NCBI GenBank assembly: GCA_041497675.1
Contig: JBGQGY010000001.1
Span: 13,727-77,726, forward strand
From: a bacterium
GTDB lineage: Bacteria > Sysuimicrobiota > Sysuimicrobiia > Sysuimicrobiales > Humicultoraceae
DNA length: 64,000 nucleotides
Direction of reading: 5' to 3'
Shown here piece by piece: positions 26,558 through 51,736 of this stretch. The translations under genes and the position numbers were made by a program. Numbering within the stretch: position 1 is the stretch's first letter; each line of letters opens with the position of its first letter. Below the pieces are notes generated by a model, which worked only from the letters and a program-made list of their open reading frames with translations, did not search any database and was not told the DNA's origin.

Positions 26558-26632
26558 GGGCGCTTAGCTCAGGGGTAGAGCACCATCCTGACGCGATGGG
26601 GGTCGCAGGTTCAAATCCTGCAGCGCCCACCA
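26558..26632 (+). tRNA. tRNA-Val (anticodon GAC) with encoded CCA
   Basis: Manual cloverleaf fold gives acceptor GGGCGCT/AGCGCCC, D stem GCTC/GAGC, anticodon stem CCATC/GATGG with loop CUGACGC, and T loop TTCAAAT. Confidence 0.95.
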
Positions 26633-40807: not shown

Positions 40808-41602
40808 ATGCGCAAGTGGAATCTGGCCCTGATGAACTCTGGTGAGATTGGTGCGATCGTCAAAGAGCACTCGCTGCTGCTGGTCCCGGTTGGCTGCGTC
40901 GAGCAGCACGGACCCGTCGGGTTCACCGGCGCCGACACGTATCTTGCAGAATACGTGTGCCACCGGGCGGCTGAGAGACTCGACGATGTGTACGTGACGC
41001 CGCCGTTGTGGTTTGGGTACACGCCCTACACCAGTTTCGCGGGGACGGTGAGCCTGCGTCTGGCGACCTTGGAGGCCGTCGTCCAGGACGTCGTGGAAGG
41101 GTATCTGGCGCACGGGTTCCGTCACATCGTCATTGTCAACAACCATGGACCAAACGAGGCGGCGATCGAGCCCGTGGCGGCGAGGGTGCGGCGGCAGCAC
41201 GGGGTGGTGCTCGGCGTGCTCTATCCGTGGCGACTGGCTAATCACGTGTCGGCGGATCTATACCCGGATACCCGCGCCGTCTTCGGCCACGGTGGCGAGC
41301 CGACGATTTCTGTCATGATGGCGCTCTCACCCGGAACGATCGACCCGTCGCCTCCCGGGGCGCGCGGCTACGTGAGTCCGGAAGGCCCGTTCCAGGTCAC
41401 GTCGTACCGAGCGGCCCGGTTCGGCGGTTTTGAGATCGGGTTGTTCAACGAAGCGTCACACGTGCTTCCCAGCGGGGCCAGCGGGGACTGGACCGTGGCG
41501 TCCGAGGAGCGCGGCCGCGAGATTCTCCGACGCATGGTAGACTACGCGTTGCAGTTCCTGCCCGCGTTTTTGCGTCTGAGCCGCGAGCGCCGCCGCCCCT
41601 AG
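40808..41602 (+). CDS. Creatininase (creatinine amidohydrolase) family protein
   Basis: LLLVPVGCVEQHGP and VNNHGPN motifs are present. ATG with SD GGGAGG. The long upstream ORF extension is rejected. Confidence 0.8.
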   Translation: MRKWNLALMNSGEIGAIVKEHSLLLVPVGCVEQHGPVGFTGADTYLAEYVCHRAAERLDDVYVTPPLWFGYTPYTSFAGTVSLRLATLEAVVQDVVEGYLAHGFRHIVIVNNHGPNEAAIEPVAARVRRQHGVVLGVLYPWRLANHVSADLYPDTRAVFGHGGEPTISVMMALSPGTIDPSPPGARGYVSPEGPFQVTSYRAARFGGFEIGLFNEASHVLPSGASGDWTVASEERGREILRRMVDYALQFLPAFLRLSRERRRP

Positions 41603-42999
41603 GCCGCGGGTTCCTCCGGAGGGAACTTCAGGGCCGCGATCTCGATGCCGGCCTCGGTGGGATCGACCGACTGCACGATGTGTCTGGTGTGATGTTCCTC
41701 GAGGTCCAGATCGGACACCACCTCGGGCGGGGTGGCCTGCGGGTCGATCACGCTGACGAGCGGGCGAGCGGGGCTGCTGCGGCCCGGCCGGCGGACCACG
41801 GCGAGGGTGCCTCCGTCCAGACGGACCAGAGTACCCACCGGGTAGACGCCCATCTCCTGCAAGAAGATCCTCGCCAGCGTGGGGTCATAGAGCGTTCCCG
41901 CGCCCGCCAGGATGAGCCGCATGGCCTCTTCGGGGGTGTGGGGCCGGCGGTAGACCCGCCGAGACGTTGTCGCGGCGTCGAATACGTCTGCGATCTGTAC
42001 GAGGCGCGCGAGCAGGTGCGGACGGGGTTTGGTGCTGATGCGCGGGTATCCCGACAGGTCGTAGTTGGCGTGGTGCTCGAACGCGACGACCATCGTCAGC
42101 TTTGACGGGCCCGCGAGCCCGCGCAGCATCTCCGCCCCAAGGATCGGGTGCTGCTGGATGATGGTCCGCTCGTCGTCGGTGAGTTTGCCGACCTTGTTGA
42201 GGATCTCGTGGGGGATGCGCGTCTTGCCGATGTCATGCATCAATGCCGCGACGCCGAGCGTGGCCATCTGGTCGCGGCTGAACGCCAACCGCGGCGCCAT
42301 GAACAGCGCCAGGATGCCCACGTTGACCGAGTGATGCGCCGTGTCTGCGTCATAGTTCTTGATGGTGGCGGCGCGCATGAGGCTCAGCGGGTCTTTGGTG
42401 AGGATGTCGACGAGTGAATCCACGACAACGCGGGCTTTGTGCAAGTTGAGGGCGCCGTTGCCCGCCGCCTGCGAGTAGAGTTCGTCGATGACGCGCAGCC
42501 CGGCGCGGTAGGCGTCGGTCGGCTCAACCTTGAGCGCGGCCCGCGCCGTGACCGGGTTTGCCTCGGTAGCCCCCACGGAGAGGTAGCGGATCCCGCGGTG
42601 GTCGAGGTACGCGGCGGCCCCGCCCATCTGTTGCACCTCAGCGACCGGCATGCAGAGCATGTCGACGAAATGGCGCAACTCGTGCAACTCCACGCCGCGG
42701 CGGATTTCGAGCGACAGAATGGAGCGTCGCCTGAACTCACCGAGGAGTGAGGCCAGCTGGAGACTTTCCTCGAGTAATATGGTGTTGTCCACAAAAAATG
42801 TCTCTTCATGGATAAAGATTCCAATTAATGGGCGGTCGGCCAGCAACGCCGTGACCAACTGATACGCGTCCGCGACGAAGCGGTCGATGACCCGATGGGT
42901 GCGGCCGTAGAGCGCCGCGGTTCGGCGGATCCGCGAGAGCGCGCGCAAGACTTCAACCGGTCGCTCGCGCACAATGGGGTTGAACGCGGGGTCGGTCAC
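41599..42999 (-). CDS. HD-GYP domain c-di-GMP phosphodiesterase with N-terminal uncharacterised domain
   Basis: HD motif (HDIGK) and HHANYDLSGYP (HD-GYP signature) are present. Confidence 0.85.
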   Translation of the reverse strand: MTDPAFNPIVRERPVEVLRALSRIRRTAALYGRTHRVIDRFVADAYQLVTALLADRPLIGIFIHEETFFVDNTILLEESLQLASLLGEFRRRSILSLEIRRGVELHELRHFVDMLCMPVAEVQQMGGAAAYLDHRGIRYLSVGATEANPVTARAALKVEPTDAYRAGLRVIDELYSQAAGNGALNLHKARVVVDSLVDILTKDPLSLMRAATIKNYDADTAHHSVNVGILALFMAPRLAFSRDQMATLGVAALMHDIGKTRIPHEILNKVGKLTDDERTIIQQHPILGAEMLRGLAGPSKLTMVVAFEHHANYDLSGYPRISTKPRPHLLARLVQIADVFDAATTSRRVYRRPHTPEEAMRLILAGAGTLYDPTLARIFLQEMGVYPVGTLVRLDGGTLAVVRRPGRSSPARPLVSVIDPQATPPEVVSDLDLEEHHTRHIVQSVDPTEAGIEIAALKFPPEEPAA

Positions 43000-45005
43000 G
43001 TGGGTCGCGCCTGCATGCTGGCAGCCGGAGGCATGCGGTCGGGCGCCCCGTCGAAGGCCTGGATCGTGGCGACGGCCTCCCCGGCCAGGCGCCGGAGGGT
43101 GCGGGGCCGTCGCCCGAAGGCGAGCCGGTGTTGGGAGAATCGAACCAGCGCGGGGATCGCGTCTTTGGCGCGCGACCGCGCCAAAGACGCGATAATCTCC
43201 TGCTTGAGGGCAAAGGTCAACTGCATCGGGTCGAGCCGCGCCAGCAAGTGGAGCAACTTCGGCAGGGAGAGCAGCACCGCGGTGTCGCTCATCGAGAGGA
43301 CGACCTTGAGACGGATCCGCCCATCGACGTCGTCGAGCAGCTTGGCCAGTAGCGCGTTGGCCTCCTGCCCGCCGATGCTGGCAAGGGCGGCTACGGCCTC
43401 GCTGCGAACACGGTGGTCGCGATGCGAGGCGAGCCGCGCGATGTGACCCATCCCCCGAGGATCGCCCAGACGACCCAAGATGTATGCGACGTTACGCGCC
43501 AGATACCAACGCCCATCGGTCGCGAAGAATCCCACGTCGTCGATGCGATCGCGGGCCAGGGTCACGATGATGTCGCAGAGCATTCGCCGAGTCCCGGCAC
43601 GCAACTCCTCACCAAGGATCATCATCAGCGGCGCAACGATGCGACTGCCCAGCAGCGACAGACACAGTCGAAGCTCTTCCTCCACCGGGGTGCCGCGGCC
43701 GTTCCACAGCGTCTCCACCATCGTATTGAGGAGGCGGGTTTTCGCCACCCCATCCGTGAGATCCGCCACCGCGCGCTCGTGAGCCGGCGTCTTGGCGGCG
43801 CCGTCCCGAAGGCCTTGCAGCACGACCCGCAGCAGCGAGAAATCTTCCTGCCCGACGAGCCACGGGAGGTACTCATCGACTGATCGGATCGTGCCCACGA
43901 TCTCTGACTCATCCGCCTGGTTGCGAAACATGTCGACGAGCGTGCCGATGACCTCGCGGGCGACGGAGGCCTCGTCCGTGCCCTCCATCTCGATGCGGAT
44001 GCTTTCTGGCGGTCCGTCATCGGCCGGGCGCCCCGCCGGGAGGGGCAGGGAGGTGGACCCCGCGACCGCCGTCTGCGGCTGCTGCGCGTGCAGGATTTGC
44101 ATCTCCGGGTCCAAAGCCAGCAGGTCGCCCGGACCCTCGCCCCCGCTGCTTTCGAGCGAGTTACGGGGCACAATCCCGACCAGTCTCTGCTCGGACAGAT
44201 GGTCCAGTAGCACCCGGGCCATCGCATCGTTGCTCCCCGGCGCGGTCAGCGTGCGCTGCAGCGGCATCCGAACCGGGTCCTCGAGCAGGAGGATGGCCGC
44301 GGCGAGGTGGCTGTAGAACTGCTCGCGGTCTTCGCTGGACTGGGTCGCGATGATGCGATCGAGGTTCTTGACGACGTCGTACAGCGTCTGACTCCAGTCG
44401 AGGTGCTGGTCGTCGGCCGCGTTCCCCAGCATCGTCCGCAATTGCTCGAACAGTCCGCCAATCGCACCGGGGCCGGACCTCAGGATGTCGACGACAAACT
44501 GATGATTTTCGGCGGTCAGTTCCTGGCCGTCGCCCATCAGGTCCCACAACGCGCCCCACGACTCGTCCTGCGGCGCGGCGCCCACGGCGAGAACGATCTC
44601 CATGACCCTGATCGTCTGCACACCTGCCCGGCGCATGCCTCCGGCGATACCCCCGGACCCTTCGAGACTCACCCGGTCTTGTCTGACGATGGTCAAGAAC
44701 GTCGTGATCTCCTGGGCGGTCACACCGGGGAGGACCGCGAAGCCGATGACCTTTCTGGCGTACAGGTGGAGGGCCAGGCTGGCCGACGTGGCATCCTTGA
44801 ACGTCGCCTCGTTGACCTGGAACGACCGGCGGGATACCCGAACGGTGAACGGTCCGTTTGTCTCGATGTAGGTATGCAGCCCGGCGAGGACCTCGCCAAT
44901 CGCCCGGTCCGTGACCGGGCTCGGGGGCGGATAGAGGGTGTAGGTCTTGAGAGCGACGGCAAAACGTCGCAGGATGGCGCTCGCCGCGGATGCCTTTGAG
45001 TCCAT
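42996..45005 (-). CDS. HEAT/PBS-lyase repeat-containing protein (large N-terminal uncharacterised region)
   Basis: C-terminal HEAT-like repeats (RVRSEAVAALASIGGQEANALLAKLLDD..., GRLGDPRGMGHIARL). The start overlaps the HD-GYP gene. Confidence 0.6.
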   Translation of the reverse strand: MDSKASAASAILRRFAVALKTYTLYPPPSPVTDRAIGEVLAGLHTYIETNGPFTVRVSRRSFQVNEATFKDATSASLALHLYARKVIGFAVLPGVTAQEITTFLTIVRQDRVSLEGSGGIAGGMRRAGVQTIRVMEIVLAVGAAPQDESWGALWDLMGDGQELTAENHQFVVDILRSGPGAIGGLFEQLRTMLGNAADDQHLDWSQTLYDVVKNLDRIIATQSSEDREQFYSHLAAAILLLEDPVRMPLQRTLTAPGSNDAMARVLLDHLSEQRLVGIVPRNSLESSGGEGPGDLLALDPEMQILHAQQPQTAVAGSTSLPLPAGRPADDGPPESIRIEMEGTDEASVAREVIGTLVDMFRNQADESEIVGTIRSVDEYLPWLVGQEDFSLLRVVLQGLRDGAAKTPAHERAVADLTDGVAKTRLLNTMVETLWNGRGTPVEEELRLCLSLLGSRIVAPLMMILGEELRAGTRRMLCDIIVTLARDRIDDVGFFATDGRWYLARNVAYILGRLGDPRGMGHIARLASHRDHRVRSEAVAALASIGGQEANALLAKLLDDVDGRIRLKVVLSMSDTAVLLSLPKLLHLLARLDPMQLTFALKQEIIASLARSRAKDAIPALVRFSQHRLAFGRRPRTLRRLAGEAVATIQAFDGAPDRMPPAASMQARPT

Positions 45006-45009
45006 GGAG

Positions 45010-47616
45010 TTAGCCCGCGGTCACCACGCGGTCGCGTCCTTCTGCCTTCGCCCGGTAGAGGGCGGCGTCCGCGGCCTTGAGCACCTTTTCGCCGGTCGCC
45101 TCGTGGTCGGGGAAGACGGCGATGCCCAGCGAGAGGGTCACCGCTCCCAGGGACGTCCCTTGGTGCTCGACGGACAGACGCGCGGCGGCCTGACGGATCC
45201 CCTCGGCCCGCGCCTGGGCGATATGGAGCGGCGCGCCCGGTAGGATCAGGGCGAACTCCTCGCCGCCGTACCGGCAGGCGATGTCCTCAGCGCGGATACC
45301 CTTTTGGAGCACGGTGGCGAGTGCCCGCAAGAGCGCGTCGCCCGCCGCGTGGCCGAAGGAGTCGTTGAATCGCTTGAAGTGGTCGAGATCCAGCATGATC
45401 ACAGAAACGGGAATCCCCGCGCGGGACGCCCGCTGCAGCTCGCGTATCAGCGATTCCTCCATGTACCGCCGGTTGAACAGACCGGTGAGCGGGTCGCGGA
45501 TCGACTGGTGGCGCAGCGTCTCTCGCAGCCGCAGGTTCGTAATGGCCAGTCCGATCTGTTCGGCGACCGCGCCGGCAAGCTGCTCGACGGATTCGCTCCA
45601 GATGTCTGGGTGATGAAGATCGATCCCCCGGATCGCGAGGTGCAACACTCCAAGGGAATCGCCCTGTGAGGCCATCGGGATGCAGATGGTCGCATCCGGT
45701 GGGTGGGGCCCCAGGTGCGGGCAGGGAAGACCAGCGGTCGTCGACGTCCACGTGTGCCCCCGGCCCCGTCGGACGGCCCAGCAGTCCTCAGGGACGAACA
45801 CGTGCGGGGTCGGGGCCCCGTCGCCCCACGCCGTGACGGCCTCGAGCAGGTCGTTGGCCGGCGTCAGGATGTACAGCGCACCCGACAGCTTGGGAAACAG
45901 CTGGGGGAGGAAGAGCGCGACCACCTTCGAGACCTCGTCTTGGTGCTGGCAGCCCAGCAGATATTCGGTCATCTCGCCAAGCAACGAAATCTCGCGGTTC
46001 CGCTGCTGGAGCTGACCGACCCACGCCGTGAGCTTTTCGTTGGCCTCACGGACGGCCTTCTCGGCCTGCTTACGCTCGGTCAGGTCGGTGATGATGGCGA
46101 TGGAGCCGTGGTACTCGCCGTCCTTGATCCGTGGCACGGCCGTCACCAAGACGTCGATCACTTTGCCCCCGGCACCCTTGAACCGGACGTCATACGTGTC
46201 GACGGCGCCCTCCCGTCGCCGGCCGCGCGCCGCCTTGATGACCGCGTGATCGTCTTCATAAACGAAGTCCATCGTGTTCTTGTACGTCAGCCGCTCCACG
46301 GGGTAGCCGAGCATGTCGGCGAGGGCAGGGTTGACGTACTCATAGCGCCCCTGCGCATCGGTGACCGCGAGCCCCTGCGCGATCGTGTTCATGACCTGCA
46401 GTGCGAAATCGCGCTGCGCGCGCAGCTCGCCATCGATGCGCTTGCGATCGGTGATGTCCTCGGCGATGCCCACGAATCCTGTGACCCTTGCATCTTTGTC
46501 GCGGATCGCGCCGGCCTGGGCCTGCACCCAGTGGATCTCGCCGTCTGGGCGTTGGAAGCGGAACTCCAGCGAGAATTCGCGCCCTTCGCGCGTACACGTA
46601 TCCCACCATGTGGAGACCAGCACGCGGTCGTCGGCGTGGATCGCCAGAGTCCAGCCGTCGCCAATGTTCTCGTCCAGACGGAGCCCGGTGATTTCTTGCC
46701 ACTTGGCGTTGACGTACTCGCACCGCCCCGCCGGGTCCGTGTGGAAGATGCCCATCGGCGACGCGGCTGCCAGCGAGCGGAACCGTTCCTCACTCTGCCG
46801 CAGCGCCTCTTCAGCGAGGTGACGCGTTGAGATGTCCCGCGCGTGGGCCTGGAAGCCGGCGACGCGATCGCCGTCGAGTATCAAATGGACGTTTTGGCCC
46901 AGCCACGTCCGCCCGCCGCTCTTGGTCATCACCGGCAGTTCGAGGTATGAGGTCGGTGTTCGTTCGCTGATCTGCACGCGATAGAAGGCCCGCGCTTCCT
47001 TTCGGGCTTCGGGGGCGACCAGGTCGAGATAGTGACGGCCGACGCATTCCTCCGGAGAGAACCCCAGAACGCGCGTCACCACCGCATTCACAAACGTAAA
47101 GCGTCCTCGGTTGTCCGTCTGATAGATGATATCGGTGGCCTGTTCGATGAGGGTCTTGTAGCGGCTCTGGCTCTCCCGCAGCGCCTCCGCGGCTAGTCGC
47201 CGCTCCGTGATGTCGATCCCGAGTGAAATCGTGCCTGTGGCGCTGCCCCCGTCGCGCATCTCCCTGTTGTGCCAGGAAATGAACCGCTCCTCGCCCGAGC
47301 TGGTCAGGATGGGGCCTTCGAGTGAAGCCGGGATCCCGGCGGCGGCCCCGCGTGCGAACTGTTCCCACGCGTCGGGATACCGTGACCGCGGCACAAGGAC
47401 TTCGAACCAGTCGCGACCCACCAGGTCGGCTGGGGCGTACCCGGTGATGCGCTCGGCTTCGTCGTTGGTCCAGACGATCCGGCCGGCCGTGTCGAGTTGG
47501 ATGACGATGACGTGGGCGTGCTGAATCAGATCCTGGGCTAGGGCCTGGACCTGCAGAGCCGGCTGTTGGCGTGGAAGGTTGGCAACCTCGCCCATCCGTG
47601 CCGTCCTTTTTGGCAT
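45010..47616 (-). CDS. Sensor diguanylate cyclase: four PAS domains, GAF domain and GGDEF domain
   Basis: Four PAS cores (e.g. TDNRGRFTFVN, TDPAGRCEYVN, TDAQGRYEYVN). The GGDEF active site is RYGGEEF, with an RxxD-type I-site context. Confidence 0.9.
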   Translation of the reverse strand: MPKRTARMGEVANLPRQQPALQVQALAQDLIQHAHVIVIQLDTAGRIVWTNDEAERITGYAPADLVGRDWFEVLVPRSRYPDAWEQFARGAAAGIPASLEGPILTSSGEERFISWHNREMRDGGSATGTISLGIDITERRLAAEALRESQSRYKTLIEQATDIIYQTDNRGRFTFVNAVVTRVLGFSPEECVGRHYLDLVAPEARKEARAFYRVQISERTPTSYLELPVMTKSGGRTWLGQNVHLILDGDRVAGFQAHARDISTRHLAEEALRQSEERFRSLAAASPMGIFHTDPAGRCEYVNAKWQEITGLRLDENIGDGWTLAIHADDRVLVSTWWDTCTREGREFSLEFRFQRPDGEIHWVQAQAGAIRDKDARVTGFVGIAEDITDRKRIDGELRAQRDFALQVMNTIAQGLAVTDAQGRYEYVNPALADMLGYPVERLTYKNTMDFVYEDDHAVIKAARGRRREGAVDTYDVRFKGAGGKVIDVLVTAVPRIKDGEYHGSIAIITDLTERKQAEKAVREANEKLTAWVGQLQQRNREISLLGEMTEYLLGCQHQDEVSKVVALFLPQLFPKLSGALYILTPANDLLEAVTAWGDGAPTPHVFVPEDCWAVRRGRGHTWTSTTAGLPCPHLGPHPPDATICIPMASQGDSLGVLHLAIRGIDLHHPDIWSESVEQLAGAVAEQIGLAITNLRLRETLRHQSIRDPLTGLFNRRYMEESLIRELQRASRAGIPVSVIMLDLDHFKRFNDSFGHAAGDALLRALATVLQKGIRAEDIACRYGGEEFALILPGAPLHIAQARAEGIRQAAARLSVEHQGTSLGAVTLSLGIAVFPDHEATGEKVLKAADAALYRAKAEGRDRVVTAG

Positions 47617-47727
47617 CCTGTAAAAAAGGTGTCGGGAGGTTATTCCCGTTTTGATGGAAGTTCAGGCCGCGCACAGGACTCAGCGGCACATCGGAGAACA
47701 CCCGTACCCGTGCCGCGCGGATCGCTC

Positions 47728-48690
47728 ATGGCAGCAGGGCTGGTGGCCGCCGCGACGCTGCTGGCCGTCAGCCTGGCGGCTCCATCCCCCCACGCCGCGG
47801 GTCAGAGCCCCCGTGGCATCTATCTGACCGATCCGGGCAACGGCCGGATCGTCCGGCTCGCCGATCTCACCGGTGCGGGCTGGACGACGCTCAGTATGCA
47901 GTCTGCGCCGCCCGGGACCGGCCGGCAGTTCGCGTTCCAGTCGGGTATTGTGGTCGACGGCTCGGGCCGGATTTACTTCTCCGACGTTACCAACTCACGC
48001 ATCGTACGGGTCGACAACATCACGGGCGCGGGCTGGGTCACGTTTGGAAGCCGAGGCACCGGGCGCAACCAGTTCGACCTGCCGGCGGGCATTTCCGTCG
48101 ATGCCACCGGCCGAATCTACATCGCGGACGCCAGCAACTCGCGGATCGTGCGTATCAATGATATGACCGGCGCCGGGTGGACGGCGCTGGGAAGCCGGGG
48201 CGCGGGACCCTCACAGTTCAACTTCCCGCAAGGCATCGCCGTGGACGGCGCCGGCCGGATCTACGTCGCGGATGCCATCAACGACCGCATCGTTCGTATC
48301 AATGATATGACCGGCGCCGGCTGGACGACCTTTGGCACGCTGGGAAGCGGCGCGCGGCAGCTCGAATTTCCCGCGTCCGTGGCGGTCGATGCATCAGGCC
48401 GTGTGTACGCCACCGACTCGAGCAACGACCGCGTCGTGCGGATCAATGACATGACCGGCGCGGGCTGGGCGACCTTCGGCAAGATCGGAACCGGGCCGGG
48501 CGAGTTCTCGTTTCCAACGGGTCTGGCGTTAGACGCCCAGGGTCGGTTGTACGTGACCGACGAGGTTCATCGCCTCGTGCGGTTCAACGACATGACCGGC
48601 GCCGGTTGGACGGCGCTCGGCAGTATGGGGAGCGGCGTCAATCAGTTTTCCTTCCCATCAGGGGTGTGTGCGGATCCGTCCGGCCGGTGA
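47728..48690 (+). CDS. Secreted NHL-repeat six-bladed beta-propeller protein
   Basis: Signal peptide, then six roughly 49-aa repeats (FxFPxGIAVD..GRIYVAD..N.RIVRINDMTGAGWT). Confidence 0.75.
   Translation: MAAGLVAAATLLAVSLAAPSPHAAGQSPRGIYLTDPGNGRIVRLADLTGAGWTTLSMQSAPPGTGRQFAFQSGIVVDGSGRIYFSDVTNSRIVRVDNITGAGWVTFGSRGTGRNQFDLPAGISVDATGRIYIADASNSRIVRINDMTGAGWTALGSRGAGPSQFNFPQGIAVDGAGRIYVADAINDRIVRINDMTGAGWTTFGTLGSGARQLEFPASVAVDASGRVYATDSSNDRVVRINDMTGAGWATFGKIGTGPGEFSFPTGLALDAQGRLYVTDEVHRLVRFNDMTGAGWTALGSMGSGVNQFSFPSGVCADPSGR
47830..48660 (+). repeat. Six tandem ~147-bp coding repeats (NHL blades); repeats 3 and 4 near-identical at DNA level
   Basis: cgcatcgt(g/t)cgtatcaatgatatgaccggcgccgg(g/c)tggacg recurs at about 48138 and 48286. 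Periodicity is about 147 bp. Confidence 0.7.
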
Positions 48691-49419
48691 TCAGCGGAAG
48701 CCTGGAAGGGCGCGAAGAAGACCGGAGATCAATGCTGCGGTCGCGTCGAGGATCGGTTCCTGACGCGCGGCGCGCGGCAACTCGAAGTGCAACGCCCGCT
48801 CAATCATCTCGGTCGAGAAGATCCCAAGAGTCTTGGTGCATGTGGCCGTGAAGAACAGCTGATCGGCGGGTTCAATCCGGAGGTCGAGCGCGGGGAACGA
48901 CGGTGAGCGGCGGCGGACTGCGGCGAGGAGAAGTGGATAGGCCTCTTTCAGTGCCCACGCGTCGTTGGCACCCGTGCCCTTGGCGGCGACCTCAATGTCC
49001 TGCGCCGTGCGCGGTTCGGCGTTGCCGTGGATCTCGACGTAGAGGGGCAGGCGGGCGGTGCCCGCCGCCACCCGGACCAAGCGCACATAGGTCTCGTAGG
49101 CACTTCGTGCCCGCTCGGTCAGGGGTTCGTTGGGACACATGCGCCCCGCCCCCTCGGTTGGCCGGTTGACGTTGATGCGAAGGCCGGGCGCGGTGCCACG
49201 GAAGACGATGTAGCCGGCATGAATCTGCGCCGCGGTGCTGATGGCGATCGGTGGCGTATTGATGTCATAGGTGCCGTGTGGCGCAGCGATCACGACGCCG
49301 GTGGCCGATACCAGGTATTCGAACACCCCATCTGCGGTCCGCACGACCTCCTGCGCGTGCGCCGGCGCCGGGGCCAGTGTCAGCACCAGCAGCAACGTCA
49401 AGACGCGCGTGGGGATCAT
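48691..49419 (-). CDS. Secreted hypothetical protein (possibly N-formylglutamate amidohydrolase-like fold)
   Basis: ATG 49419 with signal peptide MIPTRVLTLLLVLTLAPAPAHAQ. AAPHGTYD motif. Assignment tentative. Confidence 0.45.
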   Translation of the reverse strand: MIPTRVLTLLLVLTLAPAPAHAQEVVRTADGVFEYLVSATGVVIAAPHGTYDINTPPIAISTAAQIHAGYIVFRGTAPGLRINVNRPTEGAGRMCPNEPLTERARSAYETYVRLVRVAAGTARLPLYVEIHGNAEPRTAQDIEVAAKGTGANDAWALKEAYPLLLAAVRRRSPSFPALDLRIEPADQLFFTATCTKTLGIFSTEMIERALHFELPRAARQEPILDATAALISGLLRALPGFR

Positions 49420-49480
49420 CGCACACGGCCATTCGGGTTGCGTCGTGGAAGCCCCTTCGGGTCCCGAGAGGCGGCCGCGG

Positions 49481-49509
49481 TTGACACACGAGTGGTTCGT
49501 CTCTACGAT
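49481..49509 (+). promoter_or_regulatory. Sigma70-type promoter of the thrS leader (-35 TTGACA, 17-nt spacer, -10 TACGAT)
   Basis: Consensus -35 with a good -10. It lies about 300 nt upstream of the thrS ATG, matching the usual T-box leader length. Confidence 0.55.
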
Positions 49510-49515
49510 GGGTCG

Positions 49516-49800
49516 AGAGTTGCGTGGACGAGGACGAGTACGTCGTACGCCGACCAACCCTGATCGCCGGGGCGTGAGAGAGGCAGGGCCGATGGCTGAG
49601 AGCCCTGCCGGTCGGAACGGCGGAATACCCCCTCTGAGCAGCGCCGAACGGTCGTCGCCGACAACGATGACGCGGTAAGGCGCCGGGTGCGCCCGAGATC
49701 GCGCGGATAAGTGTCCGGCGCGCGCCGTGCACGAAGCGCGACCGGAAACGAGGGTGGAACCGCGGATGCCCGTCCCTTGAAGGGGCGGGCTGATGTGTTT
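49516..49800 (+). promoter_or_regulatory. T-box riboswitch leader (tRNA-Thr-responsive) with terminator/antiterminator
   Basis: The conserved T-box core AGGGTGGAACCGCGG lies at 49751-49765. It is immediately followed by the terminator GCCCGTCCC-TTGAA-GGGGCGGGC and a U-rich tract (49768-49800). A Stem I-like helix with GA (K-turn-like) elements spans about 49571-49645, with candidate Thr specifier ACC at 49627-49629 (ACG triplets further upstream). Confidence 0.6.
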
Positions 49801-49816
49801 TCTAGAGGAGGACAGG

Positions 49817-51736
49817 ATGGCGGAGATCAGCGTTCAACTGCCCGACGGGTCGCACCAGCAGGTGCCGGCCGGGAGCCCGGCGTCGGCGCTCGCCGAACGC
49901 CTCGGTCTGCGCGGCGTCGTGGCCGCCGTTGTGAACGGCCGGCCGCGCGATCTCGCGGCGCCGCTCGAACCCGACGCGCGCGTCGAGTTTGTGACGTTTG
50001 AGGACCCGGCGGGTCGTGAAGTCTACTGGCATTCCACGGCGCACGTGATGGCGCAGGCCGTCAAGCAGCTCTTCCCGGAGGCGAGACTCGCGATCGGGCC
50101 GCCGATCGACGACGGATTCTACTACGATTTTGATATCGGTCGGCCGTTCAGCCCCGATGACTTGGAACGCATCGAGACACGCATGCGAGAGCTCGCCGTG
50201 GCCGACCAGCGCATCGAACGCACCGAGATCCCGCGCGACGACGCGCGCCGCGAGTTCGAGTCCCGGGGCGAGGTCTACAAGCTCGAACTGCTCCGCGATA
50301 TTCCCGACGCCCGGCTGTCGTTCTATCGTCAGGACGGGTTTCAGGATATGTGCCGAGGGCCGCACCTGCCGCGCACAGGTCTGATCAAGGCGATCAAACT
50401 CCTGTCGACGTCGGGCGCATACTGGCGGGGCGACGAGCACCAGCCGATGCTGCAACGCATCTACGGCGTCTCCTATCCTGCGCAGGACCAACTTGACGCG
50501 CACCTGCACCGGCTCGAAGAGGCGCGGCGGCGCGATCACCGACGCATCGGGCGCGAGCTCGGTCTGTTTCAGATCCTGCCCGAAGTTGGTCCAGGTCTGC
50601 CGTTGTGGCTGCCAAAGGGCGCCACGGTACGGCGGATCATCGAACGATACATCGTCGACCTGGAGATCGCCTCGGGGTACGAGCACGTGTACAGTCAGGA
50701 GATCGCGTCCTCGCAGCTGTACAAACTCTCAGGGCATTGGGACCACTATCGCGAGAACATGTACCCGCCGATGCAGATCGACAACGAAGAACTCGTGTTG
50801 CGGCCGATGAACTGTCCGCATCACATCATGATGTACAAGCATGCTCAGCACTCGTATCGTGACCTGCCCGTCCGTATCGCCGAATTGGGCAAGGTCTACC
50901 GGTACGAGCGGTCGGGCGTGCTGACGGGGCTGTCGCGGGTGCGCGGGATGACGATGAACGACGCGCACATCTTCATGCGCCCCGATCAGATCAAAGACGA
51001 GATCATGGGCGTCATGCGGCTGATCCGGCAGGTCTACGCGGACTTCAAGATCGAGTCTGAGTGGTATCGGTTGTCGCTGCGGGACCCGACCGACAAGGAA
51101 CACTTCATCGACAACGATGTGTTGTGGAATCTGGCGGAGGGGATGCTGCGCGACGCGCTGACGGAGATGGCTACTCCGTTCAGGGAGGCGGTCGGCGAGG
51201 CCACGTTCTACGGACCCAAGATCGATGTGCAGGTCCCGACGGCCTTGGGCAAAGATGAGACGCTCTCGACGATCCAGCTCGACTTCTTGCTGCCGGAGCG
51301 GTTCGGTCTCGAGTACATCGGCGAGGACGGCGCCGCACACCGGCCGGTCATGATCCACCGGGCGGTGACGAGCACGATGGAGCGCTGGGTGGCGCTGCTG
51401 ATCGAGCAGTACGAGGGGCGGTTCCCGCTGTGGTTGGCTCCCGAGCAGGTCCGGGTCCTGCCGATCGCCGATCGTCACGCGGACTACGCGGCGCAGGTCA
51501 AGGGCCGGCTGACCGCTGCCGCGCTGCGGGCGGCGGTGGACGGCTCGAACCAGCGGATTTCCTATAAGATCCGCCAGGCGCAGGTCGAGCAAGTCCCGTA
51601 CATGGCCGTGGTCGGGGATAAGGAAGCGGCGGCCGGCTCGGTCGCGGTGCGCAGCCGCTCGGCCGGCGACCTGGGACCGGTGTCACTGGAACAGTTCGTC
51701 GAACAGTTGTCGCAGGAAGTCGCCTCGAAAGCGTAG
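49817..51736 (+). CDS. thrS: Threonine--tRNA ligase
   Basis: N-terminal TGS domain (MAEISVQLPDGS), second domain, class II motifs (HRDLP... RVRGMTMNDAHIF) and a C-terminal anticodon-binding domain. SD GGAGGA. Confidence 0.95.
   Translation: MAEISVQLPDGSHQQVPAGSPASALAERLGLRGVVAAVVNGRPRDLAAPLEPDARVEFVTFEDPAGREVYWHSTAHVMAQAVKQLFPEARLAIGPPIDDGFYYDFDIGRPFSPDDLERIETRMRELAVADQRIERTEIPRDDARREFESRGEVYKLELLRDIPDARLSFYRQDGFQDMCRGPHLPRTGLIKAIKLLSTSGAYWRGDEHQPMLQRIYGVSYPAQDQLDAHLHRLEEARRRDHRRIGRELGLFQILPEVGPGLPLWLPKGATVRRIIERYIVDLEIASGYEHVYSQEIASSQLYKLSGHWDHYRENMYPPMQIDNEELVLRPMNCPHHIMMYKHAQHSYRDLPVRIAELGKVYRYERSGVLTGLSRVRGMTMNDAHIFMRPDQIKDEIMGVMRLIRQVYADFKIESEWYRLSLRDPTDKEHFIDNDVLWNLAEGMLRDALTEMATPFREAVGEATFYGPKIDVQVPTALGKDETLSTIQLDFLLPERFGLEYIGEDGAAHRPVMIHRAVTSTMERWVALLIEQYEGRFPLWLAPEQVRVLPIADRHADYAAQVKGRLTAAALRAAVDGSNQRISYKIRQAQVEQVPYMAVVGDKEAAAGSVAVRSRSAGDLGPVSLEQFVEQLSQEVASKA

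Follow-up and report, generated by a model that had tools for sequence, protein, structure and literature searches.

The window – here, the whole 64,000-nucleotide stretch of DNA that was analysed – carries on its forward strand thrS (49817-51736), which encodes a threonine--tRNA ligase (ThrRS) of 639 aa (TIGR00418, 705 bits against a cut-off of 384). The mechanical call of this open reading frame (ORF) takes as its start an in-frame ATG at 49793, which falls within the tail of the terminator described below, but the real start is the ATG at 49817, as judged from the Shine-Dalgarno (SD) sequence, from the N-termini of homologues – MAEISVQLPDG in the window matches MAQIQIELPDG in the relative L082 – and from the same 639-aa product in the NCBI assembly GCA_041485865.1. 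The SD sequence itself, AGGAGGA (49806-49812, +), ends 4 nt before this ATG and stands outside the terminator hairpin.

Downstream of thrS, the segment 51840-57386 (+) holds comEC, a small DUF3006-like ORF, holA and murJ; the order thrS-comEC-holA-murJ looks Firmicutes-like, and the pairing of comEC with holA also appears to resemble the situation in Firmicutes. On the other side, upstream of the thrS leader, a divergent ORF of 242 aa (48691-49419, minus strand) has no match in Pfam or NCBIfam, and the adjoining ORF 47566-48690 encodes an NHL-repeat beta-propeller protein. The latter contains a 144-nt tandem repeat (48279-48612; 2.3 copies, 75% matches), which, lying inside this ORF, reflects the repeats of the protein. 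The neighbouring segment 41599-47616 (minus strand) is reminiscent of c-di-GMP signalling, with a PAS/GAF/GGDEF product (45010-47616), a HEAT-repeat product (42996-45005) and an HD_5 (HD-GYP-like) product (41599-42999).

The thrS leader was compared with those of six relatives (L001 and L081-L085) whose ThrRS proteins are 65-79% identical to that of the window. Among species-representative genomes, the nearest ThrRS (69% identical) is that of L001, a MAG named 'Bacillati bacterium ANGP1', while the metagenome relatives show 79% (L081), 78% (L082) and 65% (L083-L085) identity; the leader of L081 is truncated at its 5' end.

A sigma-70-type promoter occupies 49481-49509 (+), with TTGACA at 49481-49486, a 17-nt spacer and TACGAT at 49504-49509. 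It had been pointed out in a preliminary description of this DNA as a consensus promoter ahead of thrS, and it is indeed there: it matches the consensus in 10 of 12 positions, is the sole promoter-like site in 49300-49900 and has no counterpart in 50 shuffles. We consider it a strong promoter, with transcription probably starting near 49516. In every complete leader (n=6), a -10 element precedes the Stem I S-turn by 19-58 nt; L082 has TTGACA-17-TAATAT, and L001 and L083-L085 have a perfect TATAAT. The same preliminary description had read the region between promoter and thrS as a T-box leader that senses tRNA-Thr and attenuates transcription.

Stem I and the specifier codon

Stem I extends over 49522-49639 (+), as delimited by the Rfam alignment, the fold of the isolated domain and the pairing in the seven leaders. 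The preliminary description had recognised a Stem I-like helix with GA elements, which is present, but had placed it at about 49571-49645, a range that takes in the distal half and the 3' strand alone. Starting from the base, GC 49522-49523 pairs with GC 49638-49639, followed by a GA (K-turn) motif (GGA 49526-49528 with TGA 49635-49637) and a helix of GAGG 49530-49533 with CCTC 49631-49634. Above it opens the specifier loop – its S-turn side ACGAGTA at 49534-49540, its 3' side GAATACCC at 49623-49630 – and two further helices, 49541-49546 with 49617-49622 and 49550-49555 with 49610-49615. The distal part consists of an AG bulge (about 49575-49581), a helix of 49582-49589 with 49602-49609 that is 100% paired across the leaders and includes 3 covarying pairs, and a loop (49590-49601) that contains GCTGAGA. 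Judged by sequence and secondary structure, the leader therefore has a long Stem I with a basal GA/K-turn and a distal AG bulge/loop platform. When 49521-49641 is folded alone, it gives the canonical Stem I; this structure is absent from the minimum-energy fold of the whole leader, which is why the domains were folded separately.

Immediately ahead of the AG bulge, the 5' strand of Stem I in the window contains an extra hairpin (49558-49572, +; CCCTG and CGGGG arms around an ATCGC loop), which forms in the Stem I fold. L082 has a hairpin of roughly 10 bp (about 320-347) at the matching place. The feature is confined to these two leaders (L081 is truncated there) and is lineage-specific; it is reflected in the length of the 5' strand, which comes to 41 nt in the window and 50 nt in L082 as against 22-23 nt in L001 and L083-L085. 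The opposite 3' strand, from the distal helix to the specifier loop, measures 13 nt in all seven leaders, so that the insertion leaves the spacing between codon and elbow platform unchanged.

The codon in the specifier position is ACC (Thr; 49627-49629, +, inside GGAATACCC), whose predicted partner is the anticodon GGU of tRNA-Thr. Of the candidates put forward in the preliminary description, it was this triplet that proved correct, not the upstream ACG triplets: for the window as well as for L001 and L083, the Rfam alignment has ACC in the specifier slot. On its 3' side, the specifier loop of the seven leaders shows the pattern GAA-N-ACC-N, in which ACC alone is invariant, the base before it being U/G/G/C/C/C/G and the base after it C/A/A/C/A/U/G. 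The leader thus combines an S-turn specifier loop (AGUA ... GAA) with a 3' codon that matches the regulated gene, thrS.

Since the frames -1, 0 and +1 are all treated as candidates in the T-box database TBDB (PMC7778990), a specificity read from a neighbouring frame has to be considered, namely CCN (Pro, +1) or NAC (Tyr/Asp/His, -1). The +1 frame does read a proline codon (CCC, CCA, CCU or CCG) in every leader, and in the window ACC is followed by a non-purine. However, only ACC is fixed, whereas the third base changes in the +1 frame and the -1 frame would encode three different amino acids; ACC is also what the Rfam alignment places in the slot, and the gene that follows is thrS. Proline would in addition call for a T-box bulge with UGGU, given that bacterial tRNA-Pro has A73 (PMC9976931), and the T-box cores of thrS in the fetched loci, which come from several phyla, have UGGA in 64 cases out of 64. 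We reject both the Pro and the Tyr/Asp/His frames, which we regard as highly improbable, and take ACC as the specifier.

One detail of the specifier region departs from the usual pattern: the base directly 3' of the codon is not a purine in the window (C 49630), nor in L082 (C) or L084 (U), while L001, L081, L083 and L085 do have a purine there. A purine at this position is a preference due to stacking, not an absolute requirement (PMC7583486).

From Stem II to the ribosome-binding site

Stem II (49641-49683, +) is built from an outer helix (GCGCC/GGCGC), an internal loop (GAA/GUAA) at the S-turn position, and an inner helix exceeding the family consensus in length (30 nt where the consensus has 10). 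Folded alone, it reaches -21.8 kcal/mol, with the minimum-energy structure making up 72% of the ensemble. The adjacent Stem IIA/B element (49684-49705, +) comprises a hairpin, CGG-GTGCGC-CCG (49684-49695), and a pseudoknot between TGCGC 49688-49692 and GCGCG 49701-49705. Pairing is 100% for hairpin and pseudoknot alike in each of the seven leaders; the changes seen in the pseudoknot are one-sided only (U-G to U-A, G-C to G-U), and the IIA/B segment CCGGGTGCGCCCG is invariant in the alignment. Next comes Stem III with its flanking purines (49709-49748, +): AAGTG, corresponding to RRRxG, at 49709-49713, the stem proper at about 49714-49746, for which the Rfam alignment shows 21 nt against 7 in the consensus, and a 3' AA. 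The leader thus possesses both Stem II with the IIA/B pseudoknot and the arrangement RRRxG-Stem III-AA. The purine string of the latter and the G.U pair that closes helix A2 have been assigned to the aminoacylation sensor (PMC7583486).

The antiterminator (49751-49777, +) corresponds to model positions 187-216. It opens with the conserved T-box core AGGGTGGAACCGCGG (49751-49765), which the preliminary description had located correctly and which is found in exact form (GGTGGAACCGCG) just upstream of thrS in each of the six relatives. Helix A1 pairs AGGG 49751-49754 with CCCT 49774-49777 and is 100% paired in the seven leaders; directly next to it is the 7-nt T-box bulge TGGAACC (49755-49761, +), in which UGGA, the family's UGGN element, lies beside A1 and is predicted to pair with UCCA at the 3' end of the tRNA. 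Helix A2, likewise 100% paired, is formed by GCGG 49762-49765 with CCGT 49770-49773 (+) and is closed in the window by a G.U wobble (G49762 with U49773; alignment columns 290/305). This closing pair, described as a steric sensor of the aminoacyl group (PMC7583486), is G.U in 4 of the 7 leaders and G-C in L081, L082 and L085.

Overlapping the antiterminator is an intrinsic terminator (49768-49803, +) with a 5' arm GCCCGTCCCT (49768-49777), a TGA loop, a 3' arm AGGGGCGGGC (49781-49790) and a tail TGATGTGTTTTCT (49791-49803). The GC hairpin and U-rich tract that had been noted right after the core are indeed there, the hairpin having 10 pairs, one of them G.U, rather than the 9 bp first reported; with its 3-nt loop, such a terminator-like site is expected 0.2 times in shuffles. 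A GC hairpin of 9-11 bp followed by a T-rich tail recurs in all seven leaders, and those parts of the terminator arms that the antiterminator does not share vary in length in concert (4, 6 or 7 pairs). The competition between the two structures that had been proposed on the basis of the AGGG/CCCU pairing is borne out, CCCT 49774-49777 being part of the terminator 5' arm as well; in fact, the whole of 49770-49777 is common to this arm and to the antiterminator, which makes the two folds mutually exclusive. The arrangement is kept in 7/7 leaders. The weakest element is the U-tract TGATGTGTTTTCT, which is interrupted, and the predicted efficiency of termination is therefore uncertain.

The imperfect U-tract is also one of the points that would fit a different mode of action, in which the 3' hairpin hides the ribosome-binding site and the leader works as a translational T-box, like the class II ileS leaders of Actinobacteria. 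The host has a high GC content, as do the Actinobacteria in which translational T-boxes have been described (PMC7583486), and when the whole leader is folded, weak pairing is possible between the tail UGUUUUCU and the SD region GGAGGACA (49795-49813). Yet this pairing is rich in G.U and was seen in the fold of the window, and the SD sequence (49806-49812) is found 16 nt past the hairpin with which the antiterminator competes. The hairpin with its T-rich tail is, moreover, present in all seven leaders while its distance from the start codon varies widely between relatives; together with the position of the SD sequence, this points to transcription attenuation rather than SD sequestration. The architecture argues in the same direction. 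The class II ileS T-boxes of Mycobacterium and Nocardia share with the window the high-GC host, the T-box bulge/discriminator domain, and Stem II with the IIA/B pseudoknot (PMC7583486), but they have a very short Stem I that lacks the distal platform and a sequestered SD sequence, whereas the window has the full-length Stem I and distal platform of class I and a terminator that leaves the SD sequence free. We consider translational control unlikely and reject it in favour of transcription attenuation.

Model score and conservation

In a covariance search run in E-value mode, the Rfam T-box model RF00230 matches 49516-49780 end to end (model positions 1-219) with 51.5 bits, which corresponds to E = 1.8e-10 in a local search of 501 nt and to E = 2.3e-8 when all 4227 families are run against both strands of the 64 kb. 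It is the sole sub-threshold family with E < 0.01 across the whole window; a second T-box was looked for in the 64 kb and ruled out. The curated gathering score of RF00230 is 93 bits – an operational annotation cut-off, not a biological feature – and a scan of the window at this threshold reports a tRNA alone and no T-box.

The preliminary description had named a covariance score below threshold as grounds for giving up the T-box reading, and 51.5 bits is, taken literally, such a score. We do not accept it as a refutation: it reflects the reach of the model, not the absence of a T-box. The threshold is a curated one for annotation, the full-length match has E = 2.3e-8, and the shortfall can be accounted for, 16.8 bits being lost to the composition correction and the rest to three stretches inserted with respect to the consensus (18 nt on the 5' side of Stem I, plus the long tips of Stems II and III mentioned above). 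A further reason comes from the relatives, whose leaders are plainly homologous and likewise stay below the cut-off: L083 (77.3 bits) and L001 (69.4 bits) match over the full length and read GAA-N-ACC-A, L082, L084 and L085 give fragments alone (18-23 bits), and for L081, the leader cut off at its 5' end, nothing is reported. The gathering score is thus reached by none of the seven leaders of the clade, the best having 77.3 bits.

It follows that standard annotation would miss all seven, and that automatic annotation and resources relying on RF00230 under-count T-boxes in this lineage, every examined thrS T-box of which lies below the gathering score. The same Rfam model underlies the catalogue of more than 23,000 T-boxes in TBDB (PMC7778990). 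The seed alignment of RF00230 could be extended with these seven leaders.

Conservation provides a second line of evidence. An nhmmer profile made from the six relatives alone, with the window left out, finds 49518-49804 at E = 2.2e-41 (136 bits), the next best match in the window having E = 0.24; taken with the Rfam E-value of 2.3e-8, this places the match well beyond chance. The alignment of the seven leaders has 82 invariant columns. When an explicit T-box structure – Stem I helices, IIA/B hairpin, pseudoknot, antiterminator helices A1 and A2 – is written on it, 91.3% of cells are standard pairs, compared with 42-51% in controls that shift the 3' partners by 1-3 columns. Both-sided changes occur in 8 pairs, a number reached in none of 500 shuffles; one base pair of helix A1, for instance, is A-U in the window, L081 and L082, U-A in L001, L083 and L085, and U-G in L084. 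In the Stem I helices, pairing across the seven leaders amounts to 92-100%, and three of these helices show compensatory changes. The exception is the helix of 49550-49555 with 49610-49615, which was named from the window alone and is 47% paired in the alignment; the subclade of L001 uses a different register there, and we make no claim of covariation for it.

These data also bear on the possibility that we are dealing with a decayed or chance T-box-like sequence that has no regulation left. Such a relic might be expected to score below the Rfam gathering cut-off, to carry three insertions relative to the consensus and to have a non-purine after its specifier, as this leader does. It would hardly be expected to match the model at E = 2.3e-8, nor to keep 82 invariant columns when the ThrRS proteins are only 65-79% identical, with compensatory changes that preserve the helices and with promoter and terminator conserved around the leader. 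The insertions themselves are confined to the 5' strand of Stem I and the tips of Stems II and III, leaving the 13-nt ruler strand untouched. We therefore reject decay, the chances of which appear very slim, and continue to regard the leader as a genuine T-box.

Proposed mechanism and related systems

We assign 49516-49803 (+), with a probability of about 90%, to a class I (long Stem I) T-box riboswitch for tRNA-Thr that acts by transcription attenuation of thrS. This supports the reading offered in the preliminary description: the match to RF00230 is full-length with ACC in the specifier slot, the leader and its compensatory base changes are kept in six relatives in which ACC is invariant and its neighbours vary, and a terminator hairpin with a U-rich tail, overlapped by the antiterminator, is found in 7/7 leaders. 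Direct observation in these leaders covers the elements of sequence and structure, the extent to which they are conserved and covary, the fact that the two helices exclude each other, and which gene lies downstream.

tRNA binding, the sensing of charging and actual termination are taken over from the established mechanism of the T-box family, which would here operate as follows. Transcription driven by the promoter at 49481-49509 would start near 49516, and Stem I would offer ACC (49627-49629) to the anticodon GGU of tRNA-Thr, with the distal AG-bulge/loop platform docking the tRNA elbow and with Stem II and the IIA/B pseudoknot supporting the pairing between codon and anticodon. An uncharged tRNA would then pair its predicted 3' UCCA with UGGA at 49755-49758, so that the antiterminator (49751-49777) is stabilised and transcription reads through into thrS. 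With a charged tRNA, the antiterminator would not be stabilised, the more stable hairpin at 49768-49790 would form and transcription would stop in the tail (49791-49803). The leader, a genuine but ordinary T-box, is thus predicted most likely to sense uncharged tRNA-Thr, a textbook feedback loop of an aminoacyl-tRNA synthetase that leaves the understanding of T-boxes unchanged.

As far as the tRNA partner is concerned, the sequence predicts threonine specificity through tRNA-Thr(GGU) with discriminator U73. The threonine assignment builds on the facts set out above, namely that ACC alone is fixed while the -1 and +1 frames vary, and that proline would call for UGGU where all 64 cores have UGGA. 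Position 73 does not count among the fixed identity elements of tRNA-Thr (PMC9976931), and in the literature on tRNA identity we found no general discriminator for bacterial tRNA-Thr. ARAGORN, run on the window and on 26 fetched loci, detected no tRNA-Thr gene, and the 7.3-kb contig of GCA_041485865.1 that carries the same ThrRS has no tRNA gene.

The closest known counterparts are the thrS T-boxes of Firmicutes, including Bacillus subtilis thrS/thrZ (RF00230, class I transcriptional), which regulate the same gene. They share with the window the order of elements – Stem I (GA motif, specifier loop, AG bulge, distal loop), Stem II, IIA/B pseudoknot, Stem III, antiterminator versus terminator – as well as a Thr specifier codon ending in C and the UGGA bulge. 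The window leader differs from them in its 69% GC content, extra Stem I hairpin, longer tips of Stems II and III, C after the specifier, score below the cut-off and host, which belongs to an uncultured lineage. In Firmicutes, thrS is under T-box control in at least 29 of 34 genomes and is among the genes most consistently regulated in this way, and 18 T-boxes are known from the high-GC Symbiobacterium (PMC2494555). The glyQS-type T-boxes of Geobacillus and Oceanobacillus use the same class I transcriptional mechanism, Stem I platform and T-box bulge, but lack Stem II and the IIA/B pseudoknot, both of which are present and conserved in the window. What is new is thus a member of the T-box family from a poorly sampled high-GC lineage; the family itself is well known.

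The thrS operator of Escherichia coli likewise feeds back on thrS via an RNA leader related to the recognition of tRNA-Thr, but there it is ThrRS that binds tRNA-like hairpins in its own leader, so that control is protein-mediated and translational and involves mimics of the anticodon arm. To our knowledge, none of the T-box elements seen in the window belong to that operator.

A precedent for a lineage-specific extra stem on a canonical T-box appears to be provided by 'stem Sa' of staphylococcal glyS, which is reported to be situated in the antiterminator/terminator domain (PMC9177973), whereas the extra hairpin of the window is in Stem I (49558-49572). Somewhat speculatively, the window and L082 might constitute a structural sub-variant of class I T-boxes, in which a Stem I three-way junction, the extra hairpin beside the tRNA-elbow platform and a pyrimidine in place of the stacking purine after the specifier could alter the docking of tRNA-Thr or recruit another factor; more broadly, and just as tentatively, T-boxes that escape annotation at the Rfam gathering score may be in use throughout an uncultured high-GC Bacillati lineage. 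The seven leaders in any case offer natural variants for structural work: the Stem I insertion, a pyrimidine after the specifier and, in three relatives, G-C replacing the G.U sensor pair.

The sole tRNA gene in the window, tRNA-Val(GAC) at 26558-26632, lies 23 kb from thrS. A tRNA-Val(GAC) gene is also found about 100 nt upstream of thrS in loci devoid of a T-box, namely those of Nitrospira defluvii and three metagenome contigs (L007 1325-1399; L086 1331-1405; L087 1332-1406; L089 1324-1398).
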